DNA of 32,323 nucleotides from Thermodesulfobacteriota bacterium (lineage in GTDB: Bacteria > Desulfobacterota > DSM-4660 > Desulfatiglandales > Desulfatiglandaceae): positions 1 through 32,323 of the forward strand of contig JAXHTA010000001.1 in the NCBI GenBank assembly GCA_034190285.1, given 5' to 3'. The position numbers and the translations under genes were made by a program. Under the pieces are notes generated by a model. That model was not told where the DNA came from and searched no databases. It saw only the letters and a list, made by a program, of their open reading frames with translations. Shown here in pieces: positions 3,064 to 27,843 of the stretch (positions are counted from its first letter, which is position 1; the number at the start of each line of letters is the position of its first letter).

Positions 3064-3140
3064 GGCGGTGTAGCTCAGTTGGTCAGAGCATACGGCTCAT
3101 ATCCGTAGAGTCACTGGTTCAAATCCAGTCACCGCCACCA
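3064..3140 (+). tRNA. tRNA-Met (anticodon CAT), probably elongator
   Basis: 77-nt cloverleaf. Acceptor stem GGCGGTG/CACCGCC, D-arm TAGCTCAGTTGGTCAGAGCA, anticodon stem TACGG/CCGTA with loop CTCATAT, T-arm ACTGG-TTCAAAT-CCAGT, and an encoded CCA. The G1-C72 pair and the lack of a GGG/CCC anticodon stem argue against an initiator. tRNA-Ile2 (lysidine) is not excluded. Confidence 0.9.
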
Positions 3141-11936: not shown

Positions 11937-12161
11937 TTGCGAAGCAGAGGGAATGGGCGCAATTTGCCTGCCGAAGAAAACCAGCTATTCTCGGACACAA
12001 TCCCGGCAGTTGTAGAGTGGGCAGCCTTTTACAACCTGCAAAGAAAACGGACAGGACGCCTTTTCAACTCTCCCGACGGCCGATTCTGTTTTGGCCAAAA
12101 CCTCTTACTAATCAATGTGTTGACTCCCATCCACCTGTTACACCTCTGGCACGGTTCTTGA
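11937..12161 (+). pseudogene. Remnant of the C-terminal end of a DDE (rve-type) transposase
   Basis: The peptide ...LFSDTIPAVVEWAAFYNLQRKRTGRLFNSPDGRF resembles the conserved transposase tail (...W..FYN..RPH..L...SP..F). There is no catalytic core, no inverted repeats, and it sits in a 575-nt gap. Confidence 0.3.
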
Positions 12162-12402
12162 TAATACGCATAGTAACTACTTAACAGATTAATTTCACGA
12201 CGACACGGCGGCCTTGGAAAGCGACATGAGCCCATGAGAGAAAAGACGGCTCTTAAAGATATTAATCCATGCACTGACTTGTTGGCAGATGGCTTGAGAT
12301 AACATCTGCGGGAAAGGAGGTGGTGTTTCCGTATGTAAGGCATTTATTAATACATTCGGTGAGCATATCATATGTGCAGTAAACAAGAGAGGAGGAAAGA
12401 AG

Positions 12403-13206
12403 ATGAGGAAGAATATATTAAGTGTGTCCATTATGTGTGTGACGGTAGTGGCTATTCTTGCGGTTTTTTCTGTCCGCAATGTCGGTGCTCAGAATGTTAT
12501 CAAGTATTCGTGCTCAGCCCAGATTTATGAGGCGCTGGAAAAGGTACGGCTTGACGCCTTTACCCAGAGGACGGGGCTTAAGATTGAGGTTCATGTCTGT
12601 TCATCGTCTACTGCCGTCAATCAACTTGTGAACGGATATACCGATTTGGCTTCCACTGCCTGGAGGCTGTCTCCCCTGCATAAACAGGACGGGTATTATG
12701 AAACGGTTTTTTCCAGAGATCCTGTTGCCATAGTGGTGAATACCCGGAATCCGGTGACAGATATTACCACCGATATACTCAAAGATGTTTTTGCCGGGGA
12801 AATAACCAACTGGAAGGAACTTAGCGGCTCCGACGAGCCGATCCTAGTCGTCCTGCCGACTACATATACGGCGTCATACAAAAACTTCAGCAGAAATGTC
12901 ATGGGCTATAAAAAAATGAATTATGATATAATGACCCGTCTGTCCAGCAAGGTTATGGAAATAGTGGATCGTTTTCCCTGGGCTATCTCATTTATAGCCG
13001 AGGGGGCCGCGACGCATAGCCATGTGAAAACACTGAGGGTTGACGGCAGGAATCCTATGGATATGGGCTATCCCTATTATCAGGTTTTTTCATTTGTCAC
13101 CAAAGGGAAACCCACTGGGGTCGTGAAGGAATTTATTGACGACCTTCTTTCCGGCCCAGGGAGGGAGATTATGAAGGAAAGACGGATCACTCCATATTAT
13201 GAATGA
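12403..13206 (+). CDS. Periplasmic substrate-binding protein, PstS/PBP-like_2 family (orphan, no ABC partners nearby)
   Basis: Signal peptide (VVAILAVFSVRNVGA-QN) and the family motif DVFAGEITNWKELSGSDEPILVV. GGAGGA RBS. Confidence 0.7.
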   Translation: MRKNILSVSIMCVTVVAILAVFSVRNVGAQNVIKYSCSAQIYEALEKVRLDAFTQRTGLKIEVHVCSSSTAVNQLVNGYTDLASTAWRLSPLHKQDGYYETVFSRDPVAIVVNTRNPVTDITTDILKDVFAGEITNWKELSGSDEPILVVLPTTYTASYKNFSRNVMGYKKMNYDIMTRLSSKVMEIVDRFPWAISFIAEGAATHSHVKTLRVDGRNPMDMGYPYYQVFSFVTKGKPTGVVKEFIDDLLSGPGREIMKERRITPYYE

Positions 13207-13395: not shown

Positions 13396-14076
13396 TCAGC
13401 TGTCATCTATCACACCGATTATGGCAAATTCTGCTTTGACAGCATTTTTCAGTTTTTCCAACTTTTCGGGGGCAAAATCCTTGAGGCGAATATAGACATG
13501 ACGATATCCTTGATCGTCTTCGGGATAGAGGACAAAGATGCCGGCAACCCGTCCGTCATTTTCCCGTATTATGTCCACCACCTTTTGAATTGCTCCAGGA
13601 CTGTCTTCTAGTCGAAACCCCAATGTTATCTTCCCTGTGTTAATTCCAGAAAAATCGACCAAGACCTTGAAAATATCCGATTCAGTTATAATCCCGACAA
13701 GCCTCTTCTGGGAGTCCAAAACTGGTAAACCGGAAACACGATTTTTGAGCATTGTCTCCGCCGCCTTCACAACGCTCTGATCAGGACCGATGCTAATCAC
13801 ATCCCTTTCCATTATTTCTTCGGCTGTGATTCTTTTCAACAGATCATAAAGATCAGGGAACAGTTTTCTCTCTGCTTCGTCAAAGCTGATGACCTGGGAC
13901 GGCCCGGCTGAACGAAGATCACTATCCGTGATTATCCCAATGATCTCACCATTACTCACCACAGGGAATCTACGAACTCCGTGTTTTTTCATAAGCTCAT
14001 ATGCCCTCACAGCGGAAATATTTTTCCCTATCGTCTTTGGATTGGCCGTCATGTATTTTTCTATCAGCATACCCAA
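13396..14076 (-). CDS. CBS-pair plus ACT domain protein (AcuB-like)
   Basis: 226 aa. Two CBS repeats (MT.NP.TI...RRFPVV..GE.IGIITDSDL and VISIGPDQSV...SGLPVLD...LVGIITESD) and a C-terminal ACT-like segment. Confidence 0.85.
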   Translation of the reverse strand: MGMLIEKYMTANPKTIGKNISAVRAYELMKKHGVRRFPVVSNGEIIGIITDSDLRSAGPSQVISFDEAERKLFPDLYDLLKRITAEEIMERDVISIGPDQSVVKAAETMLKNRVSGLPVLDSQKRLVGIITESDIFKVLVDFSGINTGKITLGFRLEDSPGAIQKVVDIIRENDGRVAGIFVLYPEDDQGYRHVYIRLKDFAPEKLEKLKNAVKAEFAIIGVIDDS

Positions 14077-14217: not shown

Positions 14218-14233
14218 TGCAATACCCGTGCCA
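14218..14233 (-). promoter_or_regulatory. Sigma-54 (-24/-12) promoter for the CBS-ACT gene
   Basis: Minus strand reads TGGCAC-GGGTA-TTGCA, a perfect consensus with GG-N10-GC spacing. It lies ~140 nt upstream of ATG 14076. Confidence 0.7.
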
Positions 14234-14338
14234 GGGCCACGTGAGGATGCCAATTAATCTAACTACTTGATACAAAGAAATATTATTGAAACATATCCAG
14301 TCCATGCAGGCGATCCGGGTGGGTTTGGCGTTGGGATT

Positions 14339-14355
14339 CTTTACAGATTGTAAAG
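14339..14355. promoter_or_regulatory. Palindrome CTTTACA-GAT-TGTAAAG, candidate enhancer-binding-protein UAS
   Basis: Perfect 7-bp inverted repeat. Its centre is ~115 nt upstream of the GG of the minus-strand sigma-54 promoter. The same palindrome recurs at 18251-18267. Confidence 0.45.
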
Positions 14356-14457
14356 CAGGAGGGCATACACGGATCCAAGAGAGTTGATGTCAGGTCGAAC
14401 AGATGTTAACATAATTGTGTAAATCCGCAGAAAGTTTGGGAAGACGAGGGAAGCCAT

Positions 14458-15957
14458 ATGAGTCTTTTTAGACAATACATGCCGAGGATGTTGAAAAAAA
14501 TCAACATACGCATTCGCATCTATGCGCTTTTGGCCTGTATCGTATTCGTCACTCTGGTGGGTGGCCTGGTAATGATATGGTACACCTATCAGATGGAAGG
14601 TCTCCTGTCCCAAATTGTTGATAGAAATATGGCCGCTTTCCTGGCGGCCGAGGAACTTGAAACGGCCCTGGCAAATCAGAAGGGTTTTGTATCTTATTAT
14701 TTTCTGGACGGTGACCCGGACTGGTTGAGGCGATTAGGGGAATATCGACAGATTATCAATCAGCGCCTCAAGAAGGCGAAATTCCTAGTTGAAACCGATA
14801 AACAAAAGAATACCGTTGAATGTATCGAGTCTGAATACGGCCGTTATATCAAGTTGAAAGACAGGGTTATCGACCATTACAAGGCAGGGGAAAGAGATGT
14901 CGGCGCTCTGCTTCATAAAGAAGTCCGCACCCACTTTCTGACAATTCAAGAACTGACCAAGCAATACAAGGACATGCATGCTGAAATTATAAAACATGAC
15001 AGGGAGCAAAGCCATAAAAGGGCAAAAAGGCTCAGGATTATTGCTGGAACTGCTATGCTCATGGTTACTCTGCTGGCTATGTTTTTGGTCTCTGTCCTGG
15101 TGCACCATATCTTAGAACCTGTCAGAAGGTTGGCCCGTGAGGCCACCCGAAAACGATTAACCGATGAAGAATCAGGTGATGAAATCAGGATCCTGAGCCG
15201 CCGTGTTCACGGCCTGATTGAAGATTTTGACCATACGCATTTTGAACTTGAAAAAAGCCGAGAACATCTATTACAGGCCAAAAAACTGGCGCTCGTGGGA
15301 AAGCTTGCAGCAGGGGTGGCTCACAGTATTCGCAATCCCCTTACATCGGTAAAAATGCGGCTCTTTTCATTAGAGCGAACCCTCAGTCTTTCCGACCATC
15401 AGAAAGAGGACTTTGAAGTCATATCAGAGGAGATCAAACATATTGACAATATCTTACAGAACTTTCTTGAGTTTTCACGTCCTCCCAGGCTCAGGACGCA
15501 AAAGATCAGTCCTTCGGACGTTGTGGACTTAGTAGTTCAATTGTTGCGCCACCGCCTGGAGTCTTATAATGTGGACATAAAGATATTCCGGCAAGGCCCT
15601 CTCCCGGATATCCAGGCCGACCCGGAGCAATTGAAGGAACTACTCATAAATCTCATTGTGAATTCTTGCGAATCAATGGCAGGCGGCGGTAAAATTCTTA
15701 TCCATGAGGAGGAGTCTTTCGCAGACCCTTTGGGAAAGGTGGTAGTCATTCGGTTGGCCGACAATGGCCCCGGTGTGCCAGAATCGCTTCAGGAAAAAAT
15801 CTTTCAACCCTTTTTTACAACCAAAGAGGAGGGATCGGGACTCGGGCTTAGCATTGCTGCACGTATCGTGGAGGAACACGGCGGGTGGCTGGACCTCGTA
15901 ACAGACGAGGGAGAAGGTTCGACTTTTGTCATCACATTTCCTGTCCCGGAGTGGTAA
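14458..15957 (+). CDS. Membrane sensor histidine kinase (2 TM, helical periplasmic domain, HAMP-like linker, HisKA, HATPase_c)
   Basis: H-box LAAGVAHSIRNPL, N-box LINLIVNSCESM, G1 DNGPGV, F-box FQPFFTTK, G2 GSGLGLSI. Two hydrophobic segments at ~aa 20-43 and ~195-217. Confidence 0.9.
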   Translation: MSLFRQYMPRMLKKINIRIRIYALLACIVFVTLVGGLVMIWYTYQMEGLLSQIVDRNMAAFLAAEELETALANQKGFVSYYFLDGDPDWLRRLGEYRQIINQRLKKAKFLVETDKQKNTVECIESEYGRYIKLKDRVIDHYKAGERDVGALLHKEVRTHFLTIQELTKQYKDMHAEIIKHDREQSHKRAKRLRIIAGTAMLMVTLLAMFLVSVLVHHILEPVRRLAREATRKRLTDEESGDEIRILSRRVHGLIEDFDHTHFELEKSREHLLQAKKLALVGKLAAGVAHSIRNPLTSVKMRLFSLERTLSLSDHQKEDFEVISEEIKHIDNILQNFLEFSRPPRLRTQKISPSDVVDLVVQLLRHRLESYNVDIKIFRQGPLPDIQADPEQLKELLINLIVNSCESMAGGGKILIHEEESFADPLGKVVVIRLADNGPGVPESLQEKIFQPFFTTKEEGSGLGLSIAARIVEEHGGWLDLVTDEGEGSTFVITFPVPEW

Positions 15958-15960
15958 GCC

Positions 15961-17445
15961 ATGAATGATATCCTAATCATTGATGATGACGACCAATTAC
16001 GAATGAGTTTTGAAAAACTTTTGACATCAGAGGGTTATACGGTAAGAAACGCCTCATCAGGGGAAGCAGGCGTCAAACTGATACATGAGGGAGTCCCGGA
16101 CCTGGTCATTCTGGACTTACGGCTGCCCGGAATAAACGGGCTTGAGACCTTTCAGGTGATTCATGAAATCGAGCCAAGACTCCCGGTTATAATCATGACA
16201 GCTTATGGCACAACAGACAACGCCATAGAGGCGACCAAAATGGGGGCCTTCGACTATATCCTTAAACCTTTTGAAATCCCCGACATGCTGAATGTGATTG
16301 AGCAGGCATTGGAAGCCGATCGTTTTATGCGTTCTCCGGTGGATATCAATACAGACCCTGAAAAGGCTTCCAGGGAGGCAATCATTGGCCGTTGCAAGCC
16401 GATGCAGGATGTCTATAAGGCGATCGGGAGGGTGTCTTCCACGAACGCCACGGTTCTCATTCGGGGGGAGTCCGGTACGGGCAAGGAACTTGTGGCCCGT
16501 GCCATCTATCAACACAGCCTCCGGGCGAATAGGCCGTTTCTTGTGATCAACTGCGTGGCAATCCCTGAAAATCTACTCGAAAGCGAGTTGTTCGGCTATG
16601 AGAAAGGGGCCTTCACAGGGGCCTCCCACAGGCGTGTGGGAAAGGTTGAACAGGCCCATAATGGTACAATTTTCTTAGACGAAATTGGTGACATGCCCCC
16701 GAGCATACAGGCCAAGATCCTGAGGTTGCTCCAGGAGAGGAGTATTGAGCGTCTGGGAGGCCAAAAGACCATTCAGGTGGATGTGCGAATTATTGCCGCC
16801 ACTAATAGAAATCTGGAGAAGGCCCTTTCAGAAGGTCGTTTTCGTGAAGACCTTTATTATCGTCTCAAGGTGGTGACCGTCTGGCTTCCCCCCCTTCGCG
16901 AAAGGCAGGGTGATGTCCCCCTCCTCACGGAGTATTTTCTATCTAAGTACGCCGCTCAAATGGACATTGATGTCCCTGGTATTGGAAGGGAGAGCATTAA
17001 GGTGCTTGAAGACTATCCATGGCCTGGCAATGTTAGAGAGCTTGCCAATACCATACAGAAGACGCTGATATTCAACCGTGGAGGGCCCGTGCGGCCCGAT
17101 GCCATTACCCAGTCAATCGGAGGCAGGGATCAAGACGGAGCTAATCGTAGCATAAGCGCTGATGACACCATCCGAAAATGGGTACGAGAAAAGTTGGTGT
17201 TTGAGGCTGGTGACAATATGTTCGATTCGTGCATGGACCTGCTCGCCAGTATTCTCGTCGGCGAAGCGCTCAGCCTGACAGGCGGCAACCGTTCCCGTGC
17301 GGCCAGACTCCTTGGTCTTTCAAGACCCACCCTTCACGCAAAAATCGAAAAATACGGACTCAAACTAAAAACATCGGTAAGGGAGGAAAAAAGCCGCGAT
17401 AATTTGACCCTGGCGTTGAATAAATTTGATACCAAAACGCCTTAG
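15961..17445 (+). CDS. Sigma-54-dependent response regulator (REC - AAA+ - Fis-type HTH; NtrC family)
   Basis: REC (DLVILDLRLPG, KP). AAA+ Walker A GESGTGKE, GAFTGA loop (EKGAFTGA), Walker B FLDEIG, RVIAATN. C-terminal HTH GNRSRAARLLGLSRPTL. Confidence 0.95.
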   Translation: MNDILIIDDDDQLRMSFEKLLTSEGYTVRNASSGEAGVKLIHEGVPDLVILDLRLPGINGLETFQVIHEIEPRLPVIIMTAYGTTDNAIEATKMGAFDYILKPFEIPDMLNVIEQALEADRFMRSPVDINTDPEKASREAIIGRCKPMQDVYKAIGRVSSTNATVLIRGESGTGKELVARAIYQHSLRANRPFLVINCVAIPENLLESELFGYEKGAFTGASHRRVGKVEQAHNGTIFLDEIGDMPPSIQAKILRLLQERSIERLGGQKTIQVDVRIIAATNRNLEKALSEGRFREDLYYRLKVVTVWLPPLRERQGDVPLLTEYFLSKYAAQMDIDVPGIGRESIKVLEDYPWPGNVRELANTIQKTLIFNRGGPVRPDAITQSIGGRDQDGANRSISADDTIRKWVREKLVFEAGDNMFDSCMDLLASILVGEALSLTGGNRSRAARLLGLSRPTLHAKIEKYGLKLKTSVREEKSRDNLTLALNKFDTKTP

Positions 17446-17530
17446 ATCAGGTCGGCAAACTACTTTGGGACATTTTCGGGGTGAAAGCGCCATGATTAGC
17501 TGGCATCTATATGCTGCTTCTGCTGACTAT

Positions 17531-17546
17531 TGGCACGAGAGTTGCT
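17531..17546 (+). promoter_or_regulatory. Sigma-54 (-24/-12) promoter for the stand-alone REC gene
   Basis: TGGCAC-GAGAG-TTGCT with GG-N10-GC spacing, ~100 nt upstream of start 17648. Confidence 0.7.
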
Positions 17547-17647
17547 TTTTGATTTTTAGGTGAGTCTTTCTATCCTGCCGGGGTTATTCCTGTCAAAACA
17601 AGACTATGGAGAATTAGACGCGTTTCAACGGTCTCAAAGGTGTTTCC

Positions 17648-18079
17648 TTGGGAAAGAAGTCCACAATCCTGATAGCGGATCGGAACCCTCGCGTGAGAGA
17701 GTTTCTAAAGCGTGAGATGATGGCTGAAGGCTACCAGGTCCGGCTGGCAAAGAGCGGCAGGGAAGTCCTTGAATTTGCTTATGACCACGACCCCCTTGAC
17801 TTGCTTATATTAGACCCGGATCTTCCCGATTCAAGCGAAACGCCAATACTGGAAAAGATTGAGGATCGCATCCCCTTGCTACCGGTGGTGGTTCACGCCT
17901 TTGCCCCGGATTATGGAAACCACAGCTTCTTATCGGCTACCGTGGTTTTTGTGGAAAAGAGAGGAAATAGTATCGAGGACCTCAAAAAAACGGTTCTTGA
18001 TCTTTTGAGAAAGACCGGCGTGGATCACTCGGATATCCAAAACAGGAGTAGCCGGCACCGCCACCAGCCCCGAGGTTAA
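17648..18079 (+). CDS. Stand-alone receiver (REC) domain protein, partly degenerate
   Basis: 143 aa with a TTG start after AAAGG. ILIADRN...LLILDPDLPD...VVVHAF...VEKR is a CheY-like fold signature, but DD appears as DR and the conserved T/S appears replaced. Confidence 0.65.
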   Translation: MGKKSTILIADRNPRVREFLKREMMAEGYQVRLAKSGREVLEFAYDHDPLDLLILDPDLPDSSETPILEKIEDRIPLLPVVVHAFAPDYGNHSFLSATVVFVEKRGNSIEDLKKTVLDLLRKTGVDHSDIQNRSSRHRHQPRG

Positions 18080-18143
18080 TCAGATCAGGAAAAGATAATT
18101 AAAGCTTACGCAAAAAAAGTCCTCCCTTCACCCTTCTCCCCTC

Positions 18144-18167
18144 GGAGGCTTCAGGCGTCTCTTTTTC
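18144..18167 (+). terminator. Weak candidate intrinsic terminator
   Basis: GAGGC (18145-18149) pairs with GTCTC (18157-18161), followed by TTTTT. The stem is only 5 bp with one G-U pair. Confidence 0.3.
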
Positions 18168-18250
18168 CTTTCCGGACTTCTTGAGAACTAAATTCTTTGA
18201 GCCTTATTGGTTTAAGGCAAAGCATCAATAAGCATAGCATACGTCCGTCG

Positions 18251-18267
18251 CTTTACAATATGTAAAG
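18251..18267. promoter_or_regulatory. Palindrome CTTTACA-ATA-TGTAAAG, candidate enhancer-binding-protein UAS
   Basis: Perfect 7-bp inverted repeat. Its centre is ~116 nt upstream of the GG of the sigma-54 promoter at 18374. Same half-sites as 14339-14355. Confidence 0.45.
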
Positions 18268-18373
18268 AATATCGACAAAAAATTCGTCGCCGGGCATAAA
18301 GCCATTCCGTTTATCTCCAGAAAAACGGCCTCATTCTATACGATTAGCCACTATTGCCCGCTAACCGTGTTTT

Positions 18374-18389
18374 TGGCATACCAATTGCC
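18374..18389 (+). promoter_or_regulatory. Sigma-54 (-24/-12) promoter for the permease/HK/REC gene string
   Basis: TGGCAT-ACCAA-TTGCC with GG-N10-GC spacing, ~70 nt upstream of ATG 18460. Confidence 0.7.
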
Positions 18390-18459
18390 ATAATGTTTTC
18401 CGCCAAAGAAGATGTCTCCCATCTCTTTACAATCTGTAGATACGAATTTGGAGGAAGAC

Positions 18460-20115
18460 ATGGTTCACCGTGCTACAACCGATATCCAACGTAAAGCGAG
18501 CTTCTGGGCAAGCAAACCAGGGTACAAGCCTGTCCTGTTCATAACCGCTGCTATTGTATTTGCCGGAGTGGTTATTGCACCTCCTCCCCGGAGCATGGTT
18601 GACCTGGCGGGAAAGGCCGGACCCCCCGGTTACAGGCTGGCAGGCGGGTGTGAGACTATTACAGACTGTATCAATAAAAAGCTCCGTCCCGCGGCCTTTA
18701 AGGCATCAAGAAAAGAGGATAAACAAAAGGTCGCGGAATCGGCGCCCCTATTCACGGACAGAGAAGCGGCCCAATTGGCAAAAACAATGCTGGCCATCTT
18801 TTTCTTGGCGGTCTTTCTCTGGGCAACGGAGGCCCTGCCCCTGGGGGCCACCGATTTGCTGGCAGCAGTCATGCTGTATCTGTTTTCCATCCTTCCCATC
18901 AATGAGATCTCCAAGGCTTATATGCAAGATGCCGTATTTTTTATCTTCGGCATTCTTGTGGTTGCAGTAGGTGTGGCAAAGACCGGACTTGACAAACGGA
19001 TAGGTCTGATACTCTTGAGTCGGATAAGGAGCGCCAGGGCGTTCGGCCTCGTGTTTCTTCCGCTTCTGGCGATGTCGGCGAGCTTTTTGTCCGAGCACGC
19101 CCTTGTGGCCCTTCTTATTCCTGTCTTGATGGGCGTGTACAAAGTGACGTGCAGGATGCACGGTGTGGAAAAAGACCCGGCGCTGGCCGTCTTTCTCCTA
19201 TTGGGTATATGCTTTGCCGCGAACCATGGCGGGCCGGGGTCTCCCGCGGCGGGCGGGAGAAACGCAATTATGGTAGGCTACTTCATGGAATATGGGGCCA
19301 CCATTTCCTTTTTAGATTGGATGAAATATGGCATGCCCTTTGTCCCTCTGATGGGCATTGTCATAGGCTCCTACATGTATATACGTTTGAAACCGAAATT
19401 CCGTGTCCAGAATGTCAACCCCGGTGAGGTCATCAAGACGGAAGTTGCCAGGATGCCCAAGTTCGGCGGAAAAGAGGCCAAGATGGCGGCCATACTGGTT
19501 TGTGTGGTGAGTGCATGGATAATTCTGGGGGAGCACTCTGGATTAGGGGGGCCCACCCTCTACGCGGTCATGGCCATGTTTCTCTGCCGTATTATCACCT
19601 GGGACGATATCCAGGAGGGTGTGGCTTTAGACGTGGTCGGCCTGTACGCCGCGGCCTGCGCCATGGGAGCGGGCCTTAAATTCACCGGCGGTGCCCTCTG
19701 GCTGGCCAATGCATTTGTTGCGCTGTTGCCCGATTTTATTGCGCACGGAGACAACCTGGCAATAGGAATCAGCGTTCTGACAGGGATTATGACCAATTTC
19801 ATGAGTGACGGCGCCACGGTTGCGGCCCTTGGGCCAATCGTCCTTCCCATGGCGGAACTTGCTAATGTCCACGTGTGGAAACTGGGTCTGGCCTGCGCCT
19901 TTTCCTCTTCCTTCGCCAACTTTTTGGTTGTCGGGACCCCTAACAATGCTATTGCCTTTGGCATGGGCAAGGATCCTGAGACAGGGGAAAGATTGTTGAA
20001 CGTTTTGGATTTCGTGAAGTACGGTCTGCCGGTCACAATCCTGGCGTGGCTTGTCCTGTGGTTTTGGTCCATTCTGGGATACTGGCAGTTCATGAGTTGG
20101 CCGGGACTTCCATAA
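18460..20115 (+). CDS. DASS/SLC13-like anion permease (ion-transporter superfamily), paralog 1
   Basis: Polytopic membrane protein with two hairpin-type motifs, GGPGSPAAGGRNAIM and VVGTPNNAIAF. The ORF opens at 18412, but the ATG at 18460 follows a GGAGGA RBS and lies downstream of the predicted sigma-54 start site. Confidence 0.75.
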   Translation: MVHRATTDIQRKASFWASKPGYKPVLFITAAIVFAGVVIAPPPRSMVDLAGKAGPPGYRLAGGCETITDCINKKLRPAAFKASRKEDKQKVAESAPLFTDREAAQLAKTMLAIFFLAVFLWATEALPLGATDLLAAVMLYLFSILPINEISKAYMQDAVFFIFGILVVAVGVAKTGLDKRIGLILLSRIRSARAFGLVFLPLLAMSASFLSEHALVALLIPVLMGVYKVTCRMHGVEKDPALAVFLLLGICFAANHGGPGSPAAGGRNAIMVGYFMEYGATISFLDWMKYGMPFVPLMGIVIGSYMYIRLKPKFRVQNVNPGEVIKTEVARMPKFGGKEAKMAAILVCVVSAWIILGEHSGLGGPTLYAVMAMFLCRIITWDDIQEGVALDVVGLYAAACAMGAGLKFTGGALWLANAFVALLPDFIAHGDNLAIGISVLTGIMTNFMSDGATVAALGPIVLPMAELANVHVWKLGLACAFSSSFANFLVVGTPNNAIAFGMGKDPETGERLLNVLDFVKYGLPVTILAWLVLWFWSILGYWQFMSWPGLP

Positions 20116-20178
20116 TTAATGCTGTGCGGCGTAAAGAGCTGTATACGGGCCTTTGTTCAAATGGGGTTGTAAGCCAAT

Positions 20179-21840
20179 ATGAAGAGTTCACTTTATCTGA
20201 ATCTCCAGAGGAAGATCATTTCCCTCACCTTACTGGTTTCCTTTGCTCCGCTGATTATCCTCGGCGTGACCATGTACTGCCTGTTCTCCCGGACCGCGAG
20301 GGATAAGATCGAAGAACAGATAAGATATCGAGCAAGGTCGCAGTCAGAGGCGGTGGATCTGTTTTTAAAAGAGCGCACCGCCATTCTCGGCGCGATGGCT
20401 GAAAACCGAAATATCCTTGATATTACAGATGAAAAGAACCTTTCCCACGTATTAAATGTCATGAATTCATGGGCTGGGGCCTTTGTGGATCTGGGCGTAA
20501 TTGACAATGCGGGCCGGCACCTTGCCTATGTGGGGCCCTATGATCTTAAGGGCATGAATTACTATCAGGAACCCTGGTTTGCCGAGGTCATGAGCAAAGG
20601 GATCTATGTCAGCGATGTCTACATGGGTTTCCGGCAGTCGCCACATTTTATTATTGCCGTAAGACGCCAGGAGGACGAGAGTAGCTGGATACTAAGGGCA
20701 ACTATTGATCCGGATGTCTTTAGTGGAATCGTGAGATCAGCACAGATAGGAAAGACAGGGGATGCCTACATCATAAATAAGGCCGGCGTTTTTCAGACAG
20801 GTCCCCGGTTTGATGGGCAGATTCTGTCCAAATCCGAACTAAACCCGAGTTTATTCGGCGGAAGGACGACGGTTTCTGAGCATAAAAATGGTCGTGGCAA
20901 AAAACTTCTCTATGCGGGCAGTTGGCTCAAAAACGATAAATGGCTTCTCATCATCAGCCAGGATCCGGCCGAGCAATTGAGCGGGCTGCTTGCCGCGCGA
21001 AATGTGGAGATCAGCATCATTATTTCCGGTATCCTGGCAATTATCCTGACAACGGTTTTTACAACTCGTTTGACAGTCAACCGGCTAAAACAGACGGATT
21101 TAAGGATGGATGAACTCAATGCTCAACTTATCCAGTCTGATAAATTGGCGGCGTTAGGAAAAATGGCGGCCGGTGTCGCTCATGAAATCAACAACCCGCT
21201 GGCTGTAATTATGCAGAAGACCGGCTGGATGGAGGATCTGCTTTCTGAAGAGGATTTTCAAAGGTCCGAAAATCTTAAAGAATACAAGAAGTCCCTTACA
21301 AGCATAGACGAACACGTGGAACGGGCGCGAAAGGTCGTCCACGGGATGCTTGGTTATGCCCGCAAGATGGAGCCGCATCTGGAGGATGTGGACATAAACA
21401 CGACCTTGAACCAGACGATCAGTCTTCTGGAAAATTACGCCAAAATTAATAATATCGAGATTCAAACAGACCTCCGTCCCGATCTGCCGATTATTGCAGG
21501 TGATGAGGCCCAGCTCCAACAAGTTTTCTTGAATATCATATCCAACGCGATTGACGCAATCGGCAAGGACGGTTTGATTCAGGTAAAAAACAACTGCGTG
21601 GGTTCAACAGTCAGCGTGAGTGTTACGGATGATGGGCCGGGTATTCCCGAAGACAAACAAAAAAAGGTGTTTGACCCCTTTTTTACAACAAAGCAAACGG
21701 GTAAGGGAACGGGACTCGGGTTATGGATCACCTATGGGATCATAGAAAGGATGGGGGGGTCCATTTCATTGAAAAGCGAACCCGGTAAAGGCAGCACTTT
21801 TTCCGTTAATATCCCCATTGTGCTGCCGGAGAAGAAATGA
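20179..21840 (+). CDS. Sensor histidine kinase with extracytoplasmic Cache/PDC-like domain, paralog 1
   Basis: TM1 (LLVSFAPLIILGVTMYCLF), a ~250-aa periplasmic domain (DLGVIDNAGRHLAYVGPY...PWF...YVSDVYMGFRQSPHFIIAV...GKTGDAYIIN), then TM2. H-box AAGVAHEINNPL, N-box LNIISNAID, G1 DDGPGI, FDPFFTTK, GTGLGL. Confidence 0.9.
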   Translation: MKSSLYLNLQRKIISLTLLVSFAPLIILGVTMYCLFSRTARDKIEEQIRYRARSQSEAVDLFLKERTAILGAMAENRNILDITDEKNLSHVLNVMNSWAGAFVDLGVIDNAGRHLAYVGPYDLKGMNYYQEPWFAEVMSKGIYVSDVYMGFRQSPHFIIAVRRQEDESSWILRATIDPDVFSGIVRSAQIGKTGDAYIINKAGVFQTGPRFDGQILSKSELNPSLFGGRTTVSEHKNGRGKKLLYAGSWLKNDKWLLIISQDPAEQLSGLLAARNVEISIIISGILAIILTTVFTTRLTVNRLKQTDLRMDELNAQLIQSDKLAALGKMAAGVAHEINNPLAVIMQKTGWMEDLLSEEDFQRSENLKEYKKSLTSIDEHVERARKVVHGMLGYARKMEPHLEDVDINTTLNQTISLLENYAKINNIEIQTDLRPDLPIIAGDEAQLQQVFLNIISNAIDAIGKDGLIQVKNNCVGSTVSVSVTDDGPGIPEDKQKKVFDPFFTTKQTGKGTGLGLWITYGIIERMGGSISLKSEPGKGSTFSVNIPIVLPEKK

Positions 21841-21905
21841 AGATGATCCTATAAACTTCAAAGCCGAAGTATAGCCAATTCTGGAAAGAATTTTAGGAGG
21901 CAAAA

Positions 21906-22370
21906 ATGGACCATTTCATAGTTTTGGTCGTGGATGATGAAAAGGACTTCACGGACACCCTGGTCAATCGCTTGGACAAGAGGAATATAGATGCGGCCGG
22001 CGTTTTAAGCGGGGAGGATGCCCTTGAAGCGATGAAGGTGAGACTATTTGATGTGGTGATCCTTGACGTGAAAATGCCCGGCGGAATGGATGGGATTGAG
22101 ACGCTCAGGGAAATCAAGAAGATCCAGCCCCTTGCCGAAGTTATTTTGCTGACCGGTCACGGATCGGTGGAAACGAGCATCGAGGGGATGAAATTAGGGG
22201 CCTTCGATTACCTCCTGAAGCCCGTAAAACTGGAAGATCTCCTCGTAAAGATGGCTCAAGCCTTTGAAAAAAAAGACGCCCATGATCAGAAGATTCGAAG
22301 CGCCAGGATCAAAGAATTAATCCGTTTTCCGGGAAGGGTGTTTGATCAGGAAAAAGAAGAAGAGACATAA
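21906..22370 (+). CDS. Single-domain response regulator (REC plus ~35-aa tail)
   Basis: VVDDE, VVILDVKMPGGMDGIETL, LLTGHG and FDYLLKP. No recognisable output domain. Confidence 0.9.
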   Translation: MDHFIVLVVDDEKDFTDTLVNRLDKRNIDAAGVLSGEDALEAMKVRLFDVVILDVKMPGGMDGIETLREIKKIQPLAEVILLTGHGSVETSIEGMKLGAFDYLLKPVKLEDLLVKMAQAFEKKDAHDQKIRSARIKELIRFPGRVFDQEKEEET

Positions 22371-22381
22371 GATTTAAGGCC

Positions 22382-24070
22382 ATGAAGGAGAATCATTATT
22401 CAGGTGTAAGAAGGAGCATTTTGGGCGGCATGATTTTGGTGCCCTCCCTTCCGTTTGTCTTGGTTCTGGGCATCGGGTACTATTATTTTGCCACATCTCT
22501 CCAGACCAGCACCATCTCCAGCATGAACAGGATTGTCAAAGACCACCGTCAGATGATTGATTCGTTTTTTAGCGAGCGAAAGGCCGACCTTGGCTTTATT
22601 CTCCACACATATAAATATGAGGATCTCACGGAGTCTCAAAAACTCTATGATGTCTTTGCCGGGCTGCAACGTGTATCCAGCGCGTTCTTGGATCTTGGCG
22701 TTTTTGATGAAAAGGGCCTCCATGTCAGTTACCAGGGACCTTACAAATTGGCCGGCAGGGATTATGGGAGTGAGGGCTGGTTCAAGGAGGTTCTAAAGGA
22801 GGGCTGTTACATCAGCGATGTCTTCCTTGGCTATCGCCGCATACCCCACTTCATCATCGCCTTGGCCGGACAGGATGGTAGAAAGAAATGGGTTATTCGG
22901 GCCACCATTGATACCTACATGTTTAACGGCCTGGTCAAAAAAGTGCACATTGGCAAGACCGGTGAGTCCTACCTAATTAACAGAAACGCTGTATTCCAGA
23001 CTGAGAGACGTTCAGGCGGGAATCTTATGGATAAAGCCCCTGAAAACATCAAATACCCTTTATCCCGTAGCGGGGTAGAGAACTTCGTTTTAAAAGATCA
23101 AAGGGGAGATGCGCATTGCTATGCCACGACCTGGCTCAAAAACAAGGATTGGCTGCTGGTCGTGAGACAGGAGAAGGCGGACGCGTTCAGGCTCCTTTAT
23201 TCAGCTGGCTATCTGATCCTTCTCATTTCCATAGTGGGCGGCGGAGGCATTGTTGTTCTCGCCTTCTACATGACCGGCCGGATTGTCAGGCGAATGCAGC
23301 AGATGGATATGGAAAAAGAAAAACTGGGTGATCAGCTCATCAGGGCCGGACGATTAGCGGAATTAGGCGAGATGGCGGCAGGGTTCGCACATGAGATCAA
23401 TAATCCGCTCCAGATAATGAAGAGCGAGCAGGCGCTTATGGATGCCGTTTTTTCAGAACTGAAGGAAAAAGGCCAATTAAAGGAATCAGAGGATTTGGCC
23501 GAATTGGAGGACTCCATAGCCCAAATAAGGCTTCAAATCGAGCGTTGTTCAAAAATTACACATTCCATACTCGCCTTTGGCAGAAAAGGTGAAGCCGAAC
23601 CAACGGCCGTGGACCTACGGACTTTCATTCCTGAAGTCACAGGCATGGTCGCCAAGAAGGCAATTGTCCATGGGATTCAGATGAACCAGGCTTTATTGGA
23701 AGCCCTCCCTCCGGTTCGTGTTGACCCGGCGCTTTTTCAACAGGTCTTGCTCAATCTCTTAAACAACGCCATTGACGCGATCCTGGAAAGACATGGTGCC
23801 AGCGGCGGAGAGATGTCTATTGAAGCCCGTCCGGCAGAAAATGGAGACGTGGAGATTTCTGTCAAAGATAACGGCATCGGAATCAGCCCGGATAATCAGG
23901 AAAAGATATTCAGGCCCTTTTTTACCACGAAACCGGCAGGCAGGGGAACAGGATTAGGCCTTTCCGTATGTTACAGCATAATAGACAACATGGGTGGTGT
24001 CATGAAGTTGAGCAGTGAAAAGGGCGTTGGTACGACTGTTACGATACTCCTGCCAAAAGAGACTCGCTGA
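22382..24070 (+). CDS. Sensor histidine kinase with extracytoplasmic Cache/PDC-like domain, paralog 2
   Basis: Same architecture as 20179..21840 (DLGVFDEKGLHVSYQGPY...GWF...YISDVFLGYRRIPHFIIAL...GKTGESYLIN). H-box AAGFAHEINNPL, LNLLNNAID, DNGIGI, FRPFFTTK, GTGLGL. Confidence 0.9.
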   Translation: MKENHYSGVRRSILGGMILVPSLPFVLVLGIGYYYFATSLQTSTISSMNRIVKDHRQMIDSFFSERKADLGFILHTYKYEDLTESQKLYDVFAGLQRVSSAFLDLGVFDEKGLHVSYQGPYKLAGRDYGSEGWFKEVLKEGCYISDVFLGYRRIPHFIIALAGQDGRKKWVIRATIDTYMFNGLVKKVHIGKTGESYLINRNAVFQTERRSGGNLMDKAPENIKYPLSRSGVENFVLKDQRGDAHCYATTWLKNKDWLLVVRQEKADAFRLLYSAGYLILLISIVGGGGIVVLAFYMTGRIVRRMQQMDMEKEKLGDQLIRAGRLAELGEMAAGFAHEINNPLQIMKSEQALMDAVFSELKEKGQLKESEDLAELEDSIAQIRLQIERCSKITHSILAFGRKGEAEPTAVDLRTFIPEVTGMVAKKAIVHGIQMNQALLEALPPVRVDPALFQQVLLNLLNNAIDAILERHGASGGEMSIEARPAENGDVEISVKDNGIGISPDNQEKIFRPFFTTKPAGRGTGLGLSVCYSIIDNMGGVMKLSSEKGVGTTVTILLPKETR

Positions 24071-24293
24071 CGAGGCAAATATTTCGAAAGCTCAACGGCA
24101 ACTTCCAAAGAAAACACGGTTAGCGGAGCTGATATTTGAGCAAGAATCGGCCTTTTGAAGGTAAGACACCACGACCCGAGGGAATCTCTTTTGCCAAAGC
24201 CGAATTACAATGGGTCAGCAACAGGGCGATGAATGTTTCGAAGACCGATCAGCACTACGTTTTTGGGATGTTAGAACAACGGGGGGATATAGG

Positions 24294-24761
24294 ATGGAAC
24301 ATATGAAAATTATGTTGGTTGATGATGAGGAGAGGTTCCTTTCCACCACCAAAAAACTTCTTGCGAGGAAAGGTCATGATATTTTCACTGCAACCGGCGG
24401 CGCTGACGCCCTCGAACAACTGCGAATCCACAGTATTCACGTGGTGATCTTAGACGTCAAGATGCCAGGCATGGACGGCATTGAAACCTTGAAGGCCATT
24501 AAAAGGATTTATCCTATGGTTGAGGTGATTATGCTGACCGGTCACGGCACAGTGGATTCCGCCGTTGAAGGTTTGAAGTCCGGAGCCACGGACTATTTGA
24601 CCAAGCCCACCGATGTGAATGACCTCATTGAAAAAGCGGAAGAGGCATTTGAAAAAAGACAGAGACTGGAAGAAAAAATCCGTGTGGCCCAGGTGCGAAG
24701 CTTCATGAAGTCTCCAGGTGAGATTATTAGAGAAACCGAAAAGAGTTCACGCGAAAGATGA
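24294..24761 (+). CDS. Single-domain response regulator (REC plus ~35-aa tail), paralog of 21906..22370
   Basis: LVDDEE, VVILDVKMPGMDGIETL, MLTGHG and TDYLTKP. The ORF opens at 24210, but ATG 24294 (or 24303) preceded by a G-rich SD fits REC N-termini. Confidence 0.9.
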   Translation: MEHMKIMLVDDEERFLSTTKKLLARKGHDIFTATGGADALEQLRIHSIHVVILDVKMPGMDGIETLKAIKRIYPMVEVIMLTGHGTVDSAVEGLKSGATDYLTKPTDVNDLIEKAEEAFEKRQRLEEKIRVAQVRSFMKSPGEIIRETEKSSRER

Positions 24762-24771
24762 GGTGAAGAAA

Positions 24772-26622
24772 ATGTCTCAGGTCAAGAAAAAGGCCACGGG
24801 ATACGATAAGTATGTTGACTGGCGACTGTTCTCTATACCTGTTGTCCTGTTTTTTGCAATCCTGATCCTGCCGACGCCTTACGGGATGAAGGACGTGGGT
24901 ACGGAGGTCAAGGTCGGGCCGAAAACCGTTATTAATCTTGTCACCACGGAATTGTTTAATAACAAGAGCATAGAAGTGGCCCAGTGGGAACTTCTCACTG
25001 CCCGGATAATGGAAAGAAATATGAGGATGGGAGCGCTTTCCAGAGGTCGTTTTCTAAAACGGGACATCAAGTGGTGCGAAAAATACGAGATTCAGGCAGA
25101 TTCCGAAAACCTGAAAAAGGCTCAGGACTATATTAACGAGACAGTCAGTGATGAAAGGTTTTCCACAATTATGAAAAAGGCCGTGGAACTCAGGAGAGAC
25201 GGCCTCAAGTATGAGGAGCTTTCCGGCAGGGACAGGAAGGCCGCCGATAAAGGGGCCTGGCACATTAAGGTCGCCATAGGCATGATGGTTTTTGTGGTTT
25301 TCTGCTTCATGACGGAATGCATCCCCTTGCCGGGTGTCGCCTTTTGCATCGGTCTTATCCTTGTTTGCACGGGCGTTGTAACAAGACAGCAGGTGGCCAT
25401 GCTCTACTGGAGCGACGCCTGCTGGTTCATTATGGGGAGCCTCATGTTTGCAGCGGCCTTTGTCAAGACCGGTGTTGACAAGAGAATATGCCTCATGATG
25501 TTCAGAAAACTGGCCGTTCCCAATGTGAAATGGGTCACGCTTATTTTCTTTATAATCATTTCACCCCTTGCGGCCTTTATCTCAGACCATGCCTTAGCCG
25601 CCATGTTCCTCCCCATAGGCATGCTGCTTTACCAGAACAGCCTGACCGATGAGGTCCCGGAGGACATGGAGCTTGCCAAGATGATGATGATATCCATTGC
25701 AATGGCCTGTAACATAGGAGGCCCGGGGGCCCCGTCAGGCGGCGCAAGAAACGTAATAATGATGACCTATCTTAATGACATGTTCGGCTTTGATATCGGT
25801 TACTTCCAATGGGTCACCTATTGCTTTCCCTTTATACTGGTCATGATCCCTATAACATGGTTCACGGTGAATCTGCGCTTCAGGCCCAAGATCACTTCCC
25901 TCGCCCCTGCCATGAACCAGCTGCAAAAAGAAATAGGGAAGATGGGAGGATGGAACAAGAGGCAAATATGGGCTCTCATCATATTTGTCATTATGGTATA
26001 CGGCTGGTTCACTGAAAAGGTCTTCTTCAACATGGGTATATATCCCGTTCGTCTCGGCATAGGGGTGATAGCAGTTGCAGGCGCGGTGGCCTATCTCCTT
26101 ACCGGCGTCGTAAATTGGAGAGACTATCAGGAGAGAGTGGACTGGGGGGTAGTCTGGCTTTATGCCGGGGCCATCATCTTTGGCCGAACCCTGGACAGCA
26201 CCGGTGCTGCCTACTGGCTGGCAAGATCTGTGATTGATCTTCTCGGGCCTTTGGGAATGAATTCCGGGCTTCCCCTCATGGCGACTTCCAATGGTCTCAC
26301 GGCCATACTGACCAATCTCATGGCAGATGGCCCCGCCGCCGCCGCCGTGGGTCCAATCTCCCTTAACATGGCCGGTCTTGTCCATCCGGGTACCACATTC
26401 CTGCCATTTATGGCCATGGCCACGGCGATTGCCTCTTCCTTTGCCTACTGTTTGGTTATTGGAACGCCCCCGAATGCCATTGTTTATGCAAGCGGTTACC
26501 TTGAGCCAAGAGACTACCTTAGAGTAGGCATTGCCATGTGGCTCTTCGCAAATGTGCTGATCATCCTTCTCACAGCATTCTACTGGGGTTTCAGGGGATT
26601 TGTGGGACTAACTGGATTCTAA
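24772..26622 (+). CDS. DASS/SLC13-like anion permease, paralog 2, with a ~125-aa hydrophilic insert after TM1
   Basis: Motifs GGPGAPSGGARNVIM and VIGTPPNAIVY. ATG 24772 follows GAGGTG and lies 10 nt after the REC stop, so the upstream ORF extension to 24718 overlaps the REC gene. Confidence 0.75.
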   Translation: MSQVKKKATGYDKYVDWRLFSIPVVLFFAILILPTPYGMKDVGTEVKVGPKTVINLVTTELFNNKSIEVAQWELLTARIMERNMRMGALSRGRFLKRDIKWCEKYEIQADSENLKKAQDYINETVSDERFSTIMKKAVELRRDGLKYEELSGRDRKAADKGAWHIKVAIGMMVFVVFCFMTECIPLPGVAFCIGLILVCTGVVTRQQVAMLYWSDACWFIMGSLMFAAAFVKTGVDKRICLMMFRKLAVPNVKWVTLIFFIIISPLAAFISDHALAAMFLPIGMLLYQNSLTDEVPEDMELAKMMMISIAMACNIGGPGAPSGGARNVIMMTYLNDMFGFDIGYFQWVTYCFPFILVMIPITWFTVNLRFRPKITSLAPAMNQLQKEIGKMGGWNKRQIWALIIFVIMVYGWFTEKVFFNMGIYPVRLGIGVIAVAGAVAYLLTGVVNWRDYQERVDWGVVWLYAGAIIFGRTLDSTGAAYWLARSVIDLLGPLGMNSGLPLMATSNGLTAILTNLMADGPAAAAVGPISLNMAGLVHPGTTFLPFMAMATAIASSFAYCLVIGTPPNAIVYASGYLEPRDYLRVGIAMWLFANVLIILLTAFYWGFRGFVGLTGF

Positions 26623-26679
26623 TGGATGATAATAATACCATCTCTGCTAACGTACTGTTTTCATAAGAAGGAGAGAGTC

Positions 26680-26820
26680 ATGAAGCAGAAGAAAACCGTG
26701 TTTTACTCAAAGGGGGTTACCTATTTTGACAAAAAAGCGGAGCAGACCTTTTTCTTCATACTGACAATCATAATGCTTCTATGGGGCCTTTTCGCGAAGC
26801 TGGGTATCTTGACGGGCTAA
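26680..26820 (+). CDS. Small (46-aa) single-pass membrane protein
   Basis: AAGGAG RBS 6 nt before the ATG. Basic N-terminus (MKQKKTVFYSKG) followed by one TM (TFFFILTIIMLLWGLFAKLGIL). No homology recognised. Confidence 0.45.
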   Translation: MKQKKTVFYSKGVTYFDKKAEQTFFFILTIIMLLWGLFAKLGILTG

Positions 26821-26940
26821 GGGATCCAGTCGATTCTTTTGGGCTCTCGGAGCGGTGATTTTTCACTTCAAGGTCCTTTAAGGGATAGGACATGTCAAGA
26901 ATAATCTAACAGGATGCCCTTAAAAAAGGAGGCGAATGAA

Positions 26941-27843
26941 ATGGGCCATATGATAAAGGTCTTGATGGTGGATGATGAAGACCAGTTTCGTGCGACCACC
27001 AAGAAGCTATTGAACAGGCGGGGGTTCGAGACAATCCTGGCCGCCAGCGGCAAAGAGGCTATTGCCAAACTTCAAAAGGATCCTGATGTGGTCGTCTTAG
27101 ATATCAAGATGCCTGATATGGACGGCCATCAAGCCCTGAAGGAAATCAAAAAACGCTACCCCGATCTTCCCGTAATCATGCTTACCGGGCACGGAGCCCG
27201 CCCTTCGGCAAGGGAGGCCCTCGTCGAAGGGGCATTTGATTACCTTTCAAAACCCTGTGATATGGATCTGTTAGCCTCCAAAATAGTGGAGGCGTTCCGG
27301 CACGGGAAAAGGCAGGAACCCTCCGAAGAGAAAAACGTCATGGACGTGATGGTCCCCATTGAAGAATATACAACCTTGAAAGGAGATTCTACCATCAGGG
27401 ATGCCATCTTCGGTTTAAAAGAGTCTTTTGCATCAAAGGAATCGACAAGCAGAATCATGGAAACAGGGCACCGCTCTATCCTCGTCTTCGATAGCAGAGG
27501 AAAGGTCCAGGGTATTCTGGCTATTGCAGACTTGCTTAAAGGAATAATGCCCGCCTACCTCAGCGCGGCCAAGCCATCCACGGCAGACAGTATTGAGTAC
27601 TCCCCGATGTTCTGGAAGGGTATGTTCATAAGACAGGTCAAAGATTTATCCAAGAAAAATGTCTTAGAGATCATGTCTCCGGCCCCATTCACGATTGACG
27701 GGGAGTCGAATCTCATGGAAGCGGCCTTTATGATGATCGAAAAAAAAGCCAGGCGACTTGCTGTAGTCAGATCAGGAAAGGTTGTGGGCGTGGTTCGTGA
27801 GCAGGACCTGTTTTTTGAAATGGAGAGGATACTTAAGAGATAA
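26941..27843 (+). CDS. Response regulator with CBS-pair output domain (REC-CBS-CBS)
   Basis: MVDDED, VVVLDIKMPDMDG, MLTGHG and FDYLSKP, then two CBS repeats (VMVPIEEYTTLKGDSTIRDA...ILVFDSRGKVQGILAIADLL and IMSPAPFTIDGESNLMEAA...RRLAVVRSGKVVGVVREQDL). AAGGAGG RBS before ATG 26941. Confidence 0.85.
   Translation: MGHMIKVLMVDDEDQFRATTKKLLNRRGFETILAASGKEAIAKLQKDPDVVVLDIKMPDMDGHQALKEIKKRYPDLPVIMLTGHGARPSAREALVEGAFDYLSKPCDMDLLASKIVEAFRHGKRQEPSEEKNVMDVMVPIEEYTTLKGDSTIRDAIFGLKESFASKESTSRIMETGHRSILVFDSRGKVQGILAIADLLKGIMPAYLSAAKPSTADSIEYSPMFWKGMFIRQVKDLSKKNVLEIMSPAPFTIDGESNLMEAAFMMIEKKARRLAVVRSGKVVGVVREQDLFFEMERILKR

Follow-up and report, generated by a model that had tools for sequence, protein, structure and literature searches.

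Introduction

The described systems that come closest to the one presented here are sigma-54 promoters served by NtrC-family or NifA-type activators, which bind to an upstream activating sequence (UAS). NtrC (NRI) has the consensus TGCACCA-N3-TGGTGCA, and the strongest of its sites at glnAp2 is centred near -140; the NifA site is TGT-N10-ACA. We analyzed a stretch of 32,323 nucleotides from a Thermodesulfobacteriota bacterium of the family Desulfatiglandaceae (GenBank assembly GCA_034190285.1, contig JAXHTA010000001.1, positions 1 to 32,323), hereafter called the window, in which a 17-bp palindrome, CTTTACA-N3-TGTAAAG, accompanies sigma-54 promoters around the genes of a two-component system. 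The palindrome turned out to be the core of a longer, oriented element that recurs at a fixed distance from such promoters in dozens of related marine sediment bacteria, and that is probably the UAS of the adjoining NtrC-family response regulator.

Sigma-54 activators and their sites have also been catalogued in Desulfovibrio vulgaris. In that catalogue, the motif predicted for DVU0110 and DVUA0057 is TGTAAAAAAAGCTGACA (Kazakov et al. 2015, PMC4641369, Additional file 4), with one such site about 205 nt from the DVU0132 promoter, and the motifs of DVU1949 and DVU0804 are TTTACA-N4-TGTAAA and GTAAAC-N5-GTTTAC, respectively (PMC4641369). None of the catalogued regulators whose sites could be compared, with parts 4 and 5 of the site table covered in excerpts, has the motif described below. 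A full-text literature search returned no description of the regulon, and no pairing of the motif with sigma-54 in a relevant organism.

Results

A palindrome at a fixed distance from sigma-54 promoters

The window was scanned for the pattern CTTTACANNNTGTAAAG (CTTTACA-N3-TGTAAAG, 17 bp), together with 100 dinucleotide-preserving shuffles of its 32.3 kb. Exactly two matches were found, at 14339-14355 (CTTTACAGATTGTAAAG) and 18251-18267 (CTTTACAATATGTAAAG), and none in the shuffles. As the initial annotation had stated, the centres of the two copies lie 115 nt (14347 to 14232) and 116 nt (18259 to 18375) upstream of the -24 GG of a sigma-54 promoter. When both copies were read towards their promoters, 21 of 22 nt were identical (GCTTTACAAT-N-TGTAAAGAAT), indicating that the conservation exceeds the palindrome and is directional.

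We next searched for the same arrangement in relatives. Scanning reference genomes with the regulator returned mostly paralogues and two close relatives, L001, a metagenome-assembled genome (MAG) of Desulfobacterium sp. whose regulator is 62% identical, and L002 (71%), which is cut by a contig end. A metagenome scan with the kinase alignment added 80 loci (L081-L160); identity in these is 55-65% for the kinases and 62-82% for the regulators. The paralogous-activator loci (L003-L080, 1.10 Mb) were kept as a control set. The core TTTACA-N3-TGTAAA, with at most one mismatch, occurred 68 times in the 842 kb made up of the window and the orthologous loci, against four times in the control. Distances were then measured from the dyad centre to the first G of an oriented sigma-54 promoter, for which GG and GC were required and up to two mismatches to the 16-nt pattern TGGCAC-N5-TTGC allowed. 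Fifty-six pairs fell within 113-123 nt, whereas densities of sites and promoters lead us to estimate about 0.3 by chance. The mode was 117 nt and the mean 116.9 +/- 1.9 nt, with 10, 8, 16, 8 and 6 pairs at 115, 116, 117, 118 and 119 nt and the other distances represented once or twice each. Taken from the promoter side, a dyad stood at the set distance in 48 of 100 distinct promoters (at most one mismatch) of the orthologous loci. L001 carries two copies of degenerate sequence, TTTTACACTATGAAAAA and TTTAACAGGATGTAAAA. Each lies upstream of a sigma-54 promoter on the minus strand, at distances of 115 and 116 nt, and behind these promoters stand a receiver-only gene and an operon for Usp and CBS-ACT. 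On the complete MAG chromosome L163, where the regulator is 74% identical, three sites have promoters at 116-117 nt, in front of genes for a Usp, for a 135-aa protein followed by a CBS protein, and for an HdrD-like CCG/Fe-S protein. This phylogenetic footprinting, which the initial annotation had proposed as a check, thus showed site and spacing to be conserved in orthologous loci, although about half of these have no site nearby, and it strongly supports the predicted role of the palindrome as a UAS of fixed geometry for an NtrC-family activator.

The palindrome is the core of a 27-nt oriented composite

A consensus was derived from 53 non-identical regions aligned in promoter orientation. 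It extends from -8 to +18 relative to the dyad centre and reads YTTTACA-N3-TGTAAAAAA-N2-C-y-GACA. The terminal GACA block was conserved (G 45, A 50, C 49 and A 43 of 53) even though it had played no part in site selection. It lies 21 bp from the left half-site with the same polarity, and hence on the same face of the helix, and it resembles the leading half of another dyad that is incomplete. The blocks TTTACA, TGTAAA and GACA were found together at 42 of the 100 promoters of orthologous loci, against none of 106 control promoters; TTTACA and TGTAAA alone were found at six, and TGTAAA and GACA alone at one.

A 27-column matrix was built from 51 sites of the relatives, leaving out the window. 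Among the 76 oriented matches above 18 bits in relatives, 55 had a promoter (at most two mismatches) at 108-128 nt, and most of the others were these same palindromes read in reverse. A single match, of 18.8 bits and with no promoter, came from the control loci. On the window itself the matrix returned exactly three strong matches, centred at 18259 (plus strand, 34.2 bits), 14347 (minus strand, 32.3 bits) and 12035 (plus strand, 31.7 bits). The next ones were the reverse reading of site A on the plus strand (16.0 bits) and a match at 18433 on the minus strand (10.9 bits), while the best score of shuffled windows averaged 5.0 bits and reached at most 17.8. The sites and their promoters are as follows.

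14329..14355, minus strand: site A, composite UAS CTTTACAATCTGTAAAGAATCCCAACG; core 14339-14355, dyad centre 14347; third block degenerate, with AACG in place of GACA
14218..14233, minus strand: sigma-54 promoter A, TGGCACGGGTATTGCA; no mismatch to the consensus
18251..18277, plus strand: site B, composite UAS CTTTACAATATGTAAAGAATATCGACA; core 18251-18267, dyad centre 18259; three blocks intact
18374..18389, plus strand: sigma-54 promoter B, TGGCATACCAATTGCC; two mismatches to the 16-nt pattern, GG and GC kept
12027..12053, plus strand: site C, composite UAS TTTTACAACCTGCAAAGAAAACGGACA; dyad centre 12035; palindrome TTTTACAACCTGCAAAG (12027-12043) with two mismatches, third block CGGACA intact
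12147..12162, plus strand: sigma-54-like promoter C, TGGCACGGTTCTTGAT; one mismatch, -12 element GA and not GC

Site C, which was also picked up by a mismatch-tolerant search, is centred 113 nt upstream of the GG at 12148, so that each of the three sites is oriented to a sigma-54 promoter 113-116 nt away. The two-site regulon proposed from the exact repeats therefore holds for sites A and B but not in its count, the window having at least three sites. In the same way, the 17-bp palindrome is real as a core, while the element as a whole is the 27-nt oriented composite, followed by a site of the integration host factor (IHF) type.

This last feature emerged from the promoter-anchored alignment, which showed an A/T tract at -54..-50 and TTTCAA-N4-TTAA at -41..-28. 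The IHF consensus WATCAANNNNTTR, with at most one mismatch, was present at -42..-38 in 17 of 48 UAS-bearing promoters, in one of 52 UAS-less promoters of the same loci and in none of 106 control promoters. We infer that an IHF-type site about 40 nt upstream of the GG belongs to the predicted enhancer layout. Two of the window promoters have a perfect match to the consensus, and at promoter B an A-tract (18321-18325) and TTA (18344-18346) amount to no more than a weak IHF-type site.

14260..14272, minus strand: IHF-type site TATCAAGTAGTTA, beginning 40 nt upstream of the GG of promoter A
12110..12122, plus strand: IHF-type site AATCAATGTGTTG, beginning 38 nt upstream of the GG of promoter C

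Two further copies of the element were noted in leaders. A degenerate one, CTTTACAATCTGTAGAT at 18425-18441, lies downstream of promoter B in the leader of the gene for a DASS-family symporter and shares 17 of 20 nt with site B, flank included; it was not counted as a fourth site, its 10.9 bits being inside the shuffle range. In L001, the leader of the receiver-only gene contains an orphan copy of high score (31.5 bits, minus strand, centre 3896). These leader copies might be feedback sites or remnants.

The adjoining regulator as the predicted binding protein

Site A lies next to the genes of a kinase and an activator, which are separated by 3 nt and kept as a pair in at least 75 loci.

14458..15957, plus strand: sensor histidine kinase with two transmembrane segments, a periplasmic 4HB_MCP/CHASE3-like sensor, HisKA and HATPase_c
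15961..17445, plus strand: NtrC-family response regulator with REC, AAA+ with GAFTGA, and HTH_8; proposed to bind sites A-C

The regulator is encoded by the sole sigma-54 activator gene of the window. Its Pfam matches (Response_reg, 2e-31; Sigma54_activat, 2.1e-73; AAA_lid_14; HTH_8, 3.8e-11) and the adjoining cognate kinase place it in the response-regulator class of NtrC-family enhancer-binding proteins. In the translation the GAFTGA loop is intact and the Walker A motif reads GESGTGKE, and its best relatives of solved structure are NtrC1, NtrC4 and LuxO. It is nevertheless not NtrC, AtoC or PrsR by the curated NCBIfam cut-offs: the regulator remained under those for NtrC (TIGR01818, 484.7 against 558.6 bits; NF008176, 407.1 against 620 bits) and AtoC (451.9 against 714 bits), the kinase under that for AtoS (209 against 646 bits), and the pair under those for PEP-CTERM PrsK/PrsR, the group of DVUA0057 (TIGR02915, 429.3 against 502.6 bits; TIGR02916, 85.3 against 300 bits).

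The assignment of this protein to the sites rests on co-localization. In the related loci, site density peaks just past the activator stop codon, with 25 sites in the first kb beyond the midpoint of the gene, and 21 of 54 loci have a site within -150..+300 nt of that stop. Most of the site-bearing loci have this activator gene alone. Taken together with the fixed spacing and orientation, this makes it probable that the palindrome is the core of the UAS to which the regulator encoded at 15961-17445 binds.

Several observations weigh against this reading. About half of the homologous kinase/activator loci have no site within about 10 kb, with an essentially identical helix-turn-helix (HTH), GGNRSxAAKLLGLSRPTLHSKIEKY. 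The siteless loci are mostly of G+C content 0.53-0.61 and include the cultured Desulfatiglans anilini; neither there nor in the other G+C-richer loci was an alternative motif attributable to the regulator found. The targets of such loci may be elsewhere in the genome. A site is also missing from CBS-ACT orthologues (49-70% identical) that are located away from the activator, in L164-L167, among them the genomes of N47 and NaphS2; the membership of this gene in the predicted regulon is therefore local and not universal. Moreover, a second activator-like gene is present in 13 loci, and the right-hand 17 nt of the element match the site of DVU0110/DVUA0057, whose DNA-binding domains are unlike that of the regulator, so that a second protein could read part of the element. 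Finally, the sequencing runs that hold the window sequence are of marine-metagenome DNA only; RNA runs were sought and none was found.

Two arrangements seen in these loci are recorded here. In L164, a receiver-only gene stands upstream of the CBS-ACT orthologue (70% identical) behind TGGCATGCTTTGTGC (260-274), a sigma-54-like promoter with GTGC at -12 and no UAS; the activator does not adjoin the CBS-ACT gene there. Seven G+C-richer loci with a second activator gene (L127, L133, L135, L137, L139, L149 and L159) share GGATAC/GTATCC repeats before a TGGCAC-N5-TTGC promoter. The repeats lie about 115-150 nt upstream of minus-strand sigma-54 promoters (for example that with GG at 6516 in L133) and are probably the UAS of the second activator.

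Alternative readings of the sites

It may be asked whether the element, while being a sigma-54 enhancer, serves in whole or in part as the binding site of another activator, for example a DVU0110/PrsR-like protein reading TGTAA-N7-yGACA, the adjoining regulator being merely linked to it. Such a protein would explain why TGTAAAAAAnnCyGACA matches the published DVU0110/DVUA0057 site in register, why 13 loci hold a second activator-like gene, and why many loci with the same HTH lack a nearby site. Against it, sites with TGTAA and GACA only are almost absent, being seen at one of 100 promoters, as compared with 42 with three blocks and six with the dyad only. The presence of a single activator in the window and in most site-bearing loci, and the maximum of site density at the 3' end of this very gene, also point to the adjoining regulator, and we regard a different activator as quite unlikely. 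That the palindromes are chance repeats, or DNA or RNA hairpins such as terminators, with no protein-binding role, seems to us practically excluded. The perfect copies do form 7-bp stems, of -4.1 and -6.1 kcal/mol, but such stems are weak and no T-run follows them; no palindrome was expected by chance (0 in 100 shuffles), site C does not fold (-2.0 kcal/mol, z = +0.84), and a search of Rfam gave no match. Moreover, what dozens of diverged loci have conserved, at a set distance from the promoter, is the bases and not their pairing. The hairpin or terminator reading was rejected on the basis of the weak stems, the missing T-run, the unfolded third site and the lack of an Rfam family.

Autoregulation had been considered possible because the first copy also lies upstream of the kinase/activator operon, its end being 103 nt from the kinase ATG at 14458. 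The analysis did not bear this out. The extension of site A faces away from the kinase gene, towards the minus-strand CBS-ACT promoter (the site scores 32.3 bits when read on the minus strand and 16.0 when read on the plus strand), no sigma-54 promoter was found between the site and the kinase gene, and sites at this position are rare in relatives (three in the roughly 65 kb of the kinase-start bin, against 25 just after the activator gene). Control of the kinase operon through sigma-54 was therefore rejected, the promoter being absent, the orientation wrong and the arrangement not conserved. Site A could still activate or repress a sigma-70-type promoter of this operon. A weak sigma-70-like match is present at 14387-14415, but such matches are no more numerous than in shuffles. 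In L095 and L097 a regulated gene stands ahead of the kinase gene on the same strand, which makes read-through possible. Overall, we consider it unlikely that site A also autoregulates the operon. The same two loci have a site (centres 1201 in L095 and 462 in L097) flanked on both sides by sequence resembling the third block (GACA, GACG or GATG); it scores 34.9 bits in the promoterless direction and is upstream of the genes that precede the kinase gene.

Predicted target genes in the window and in relatives

The genes behind the three sites, and the promoter that has none, are listed below, followed by remaining observations on the window.

13396..14070, minus strand: CBS-pair and ACT-type protein (AcuB-like), target of promoter A; ATG at 14070 behind AAGGAGG
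18460..20115, plus strand: DASS-family anion:Na+ symporter, target of promoter B; first gene of a cluster extending to 27843
12403..13206, plus strand: PstS-family (PBP_like_2) periplasmic binding protein, probable target of promoter C; leader of about 230 nt
17531..17546, plus strand: orphan sigma-54 promoter TGGCACGAGAGTTGCT, perfect; precedes the receiver-only gene
17648..18079, plus strand: receiver-only (REC) gene behind promoter 17531

In relatives, CBS-ACT orthologues that adjoin the activator have the same UAS and promoter, DASS genes are also among the site targets, and a PstS-like homologue in locus L156 has both UAS and promoter. The cluster at 18460-27843 is of an unusual order (DASS, dCache kinase, REC, dCache kinase, REC, DASS, REC-CBS) and has no further sigma-54 promoters inside. 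If it is one transcription unit starting at promoter B, the regulator would control a downstream signalling cascade. The leader of promoter C (12163-12402) has no Rfam match, and the antisense open reading frame that overlies it (12029-12343, 104 codons) is probably spurious. A tRNA gene at 3064-3137 (Rfam RF00005, 73 bits) is unrelated to the sites.

Promoter 17531 lacks the palindrome, as first described and as now supported by both the mismatch search and the matrix; the consensus scan revealed no IHF-type site there either. Of the two explanations offered for it at the time, a degenerate site is removed by the blank matrix result, and another activator stays as one reading. A hidden UAS was likewise ruled out, since the matrix was blank and the position that the UAS takes in relatives is occupied here by codons of the regulator. 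In 21 of 54 related loci the UAS stands directly behind the activator stop codon; in the window the corresponding stretch is coding, as a 20-codon C-terminal extension (REEKSRDNLTLALNKFDTKTP, 17385-17445) which the activators of the relatives do not have. Promoter 17531 may thus depend either on another activator or on activation from afar, or it may be decaying.

Behind sites in the relatives we found genes for receiver-only proteins, CBS-ACT proteins, single or tandem Usp, CstA, DASS transporters, dCache kinases and REC-CBS proteins. The same holds for cNMP-binding proteins, a DAC-like protein with DACND/DACNH sensor domains, an HdrD-like protein, the N-terminus of an acetyl-CoA synthetase, a poly-gamma-glutamate hydrolase and a PstS-like protein. 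Targets of this kind point to a role in the response to stress, of carbon, energy or another type.

Discussion

The sequence comparisons are consistent with the following mechanism. The membrane kinase (14458-15957) would sense a periplasmic signal and phosphorylate the regulator, whose Fis-type HTH dimer would bind the 7-N3-7 dyad YTTTACA-N3-TGTAAAR. The half-site-like yGACA block and the A-tract would extend the element towards the promoter and probably aid the assembly of the active AAA+ oligomer. The activator would sit about 117 nt ahead of the GG, at about -142 from the transcription start; a bend at the IHF-type site about 40 nt upstream of the -24 GG would bring it to the sigma-54 RNA polymerase in the closed complex, and ATP hydrolysis would then open the promoter. 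Three units of the window would be driven in this way: the CBS-ACT gene on the minus strand, the DASS transporter/signalling cluster and the gene of the PstS-like binding protein.

More tentatively, we propose that the kinase and activator, a pair found widely among uncultured Desulfobacterota of marine origin, control an undescribed local regulon of the starvation or stress type through a stereotyped enhancer cassette (dyad and half-site, IHF at -40, 117 +/- 2 nt), the rigid geometry being required for activation. Its members would include Usp, CstA, DASS, acetyl-CoA synthetase, CBS-ACT and cNMP-binding proteins, the DAC-like cyclase and the kinase/receiver cascades. The predicted sites delineate a local regulon that includes Usp, CstA, DASS transporters, CBS-ACT proteins and signalling proteins.

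The system is an uncharacterized case of the classical NtrC-type enhancer/IHF/sigma-54 kind; the prediction of its regulon is solid but ordinary, and no new mechanism is revealed. Its interest is that an uncharacterized two-component system, common in the sulfate-reducing and syntrophic Deltaproteobacteria of marine sediments, mostly uncultured organisms in which regulation has been little charted, now has a predicted operator, promoter class and initial list of targets. The 27-nt matrix can be used directly for regulon prediction in any genome that bears the regulator, and the uniform enhancer-promoter spacing, together with the conserved IHF site, offers a natural test case for DNA-looping geometry at sigma-54 promoters.

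Several D. vulgaris activators bear comparison with this system. The 17-mer of DVU0110/DVUA0057 matches positions +2..+18 of the composite in register, whereas the DNA-binding domains of these proteins share only 14/42 and 9/42 positions with that of the window regulator; a search with the published 42-aa domain of DVU0110 gave no hits. The TTTACA-N3 block is nearly always present here and right-hand-only sites are almost absent; the two elements may be more deeply related. The motifs of DVU1949 and DVU0804 use the same half-site letters, TTTACA/TGTAAA. However, the spacer of the DVU1949 motif is one base longer, and the half-sites of the DVU0804 motif face outwards across a wider gap. DVU1949 is a one-component protein with a NifA-like DNA-binding domain (10/42 identical positions), and DVU0804 shares 19/42. 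Among the D. vulgaris activators, DVU0118 has the closest DNA-binding domain (27/42, including GGNRxRAARLLGxSRPTL) and, like the window regulator, belongs to a two-component system; it controls a transporter operon, and its published site, ATGTTCC-N6-GGAACAT, is unrelated (PMC4641369).

Overall, the system resembles NtrC at glnAp2, with which it shares the REC/AAA+ (GAFTGA)/Fis-type HTH architecture, the 17-bp 7-N3-7 dyad, an adjoining kinase gene and the position of the site, centred here at about -142 from the start and near -140 for the strongest NtrC site. It differs from NtrC in the letters of the half-site and in the absence of nitrogen-assimilation genes among its targets. Where glnAp2 has two full dyads, the present element combines one full dyad with a half-site 21 bp away and a conserved IHF-type site. 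This last feature, along with the UAS and the -24/-12 layout, recalls NifA-type, IHF-assisted sigma-54 promoters. TGT and ACA are however 11 nt apart in the composite and not separated by N10 as in the NifA site, and the activator is a response regulator, phosphorylated in our proposal, and not a GAF-domain protein. Compared with these systems, the spacing between enhancer and promoter is unusually uniform over unrelated target genes.

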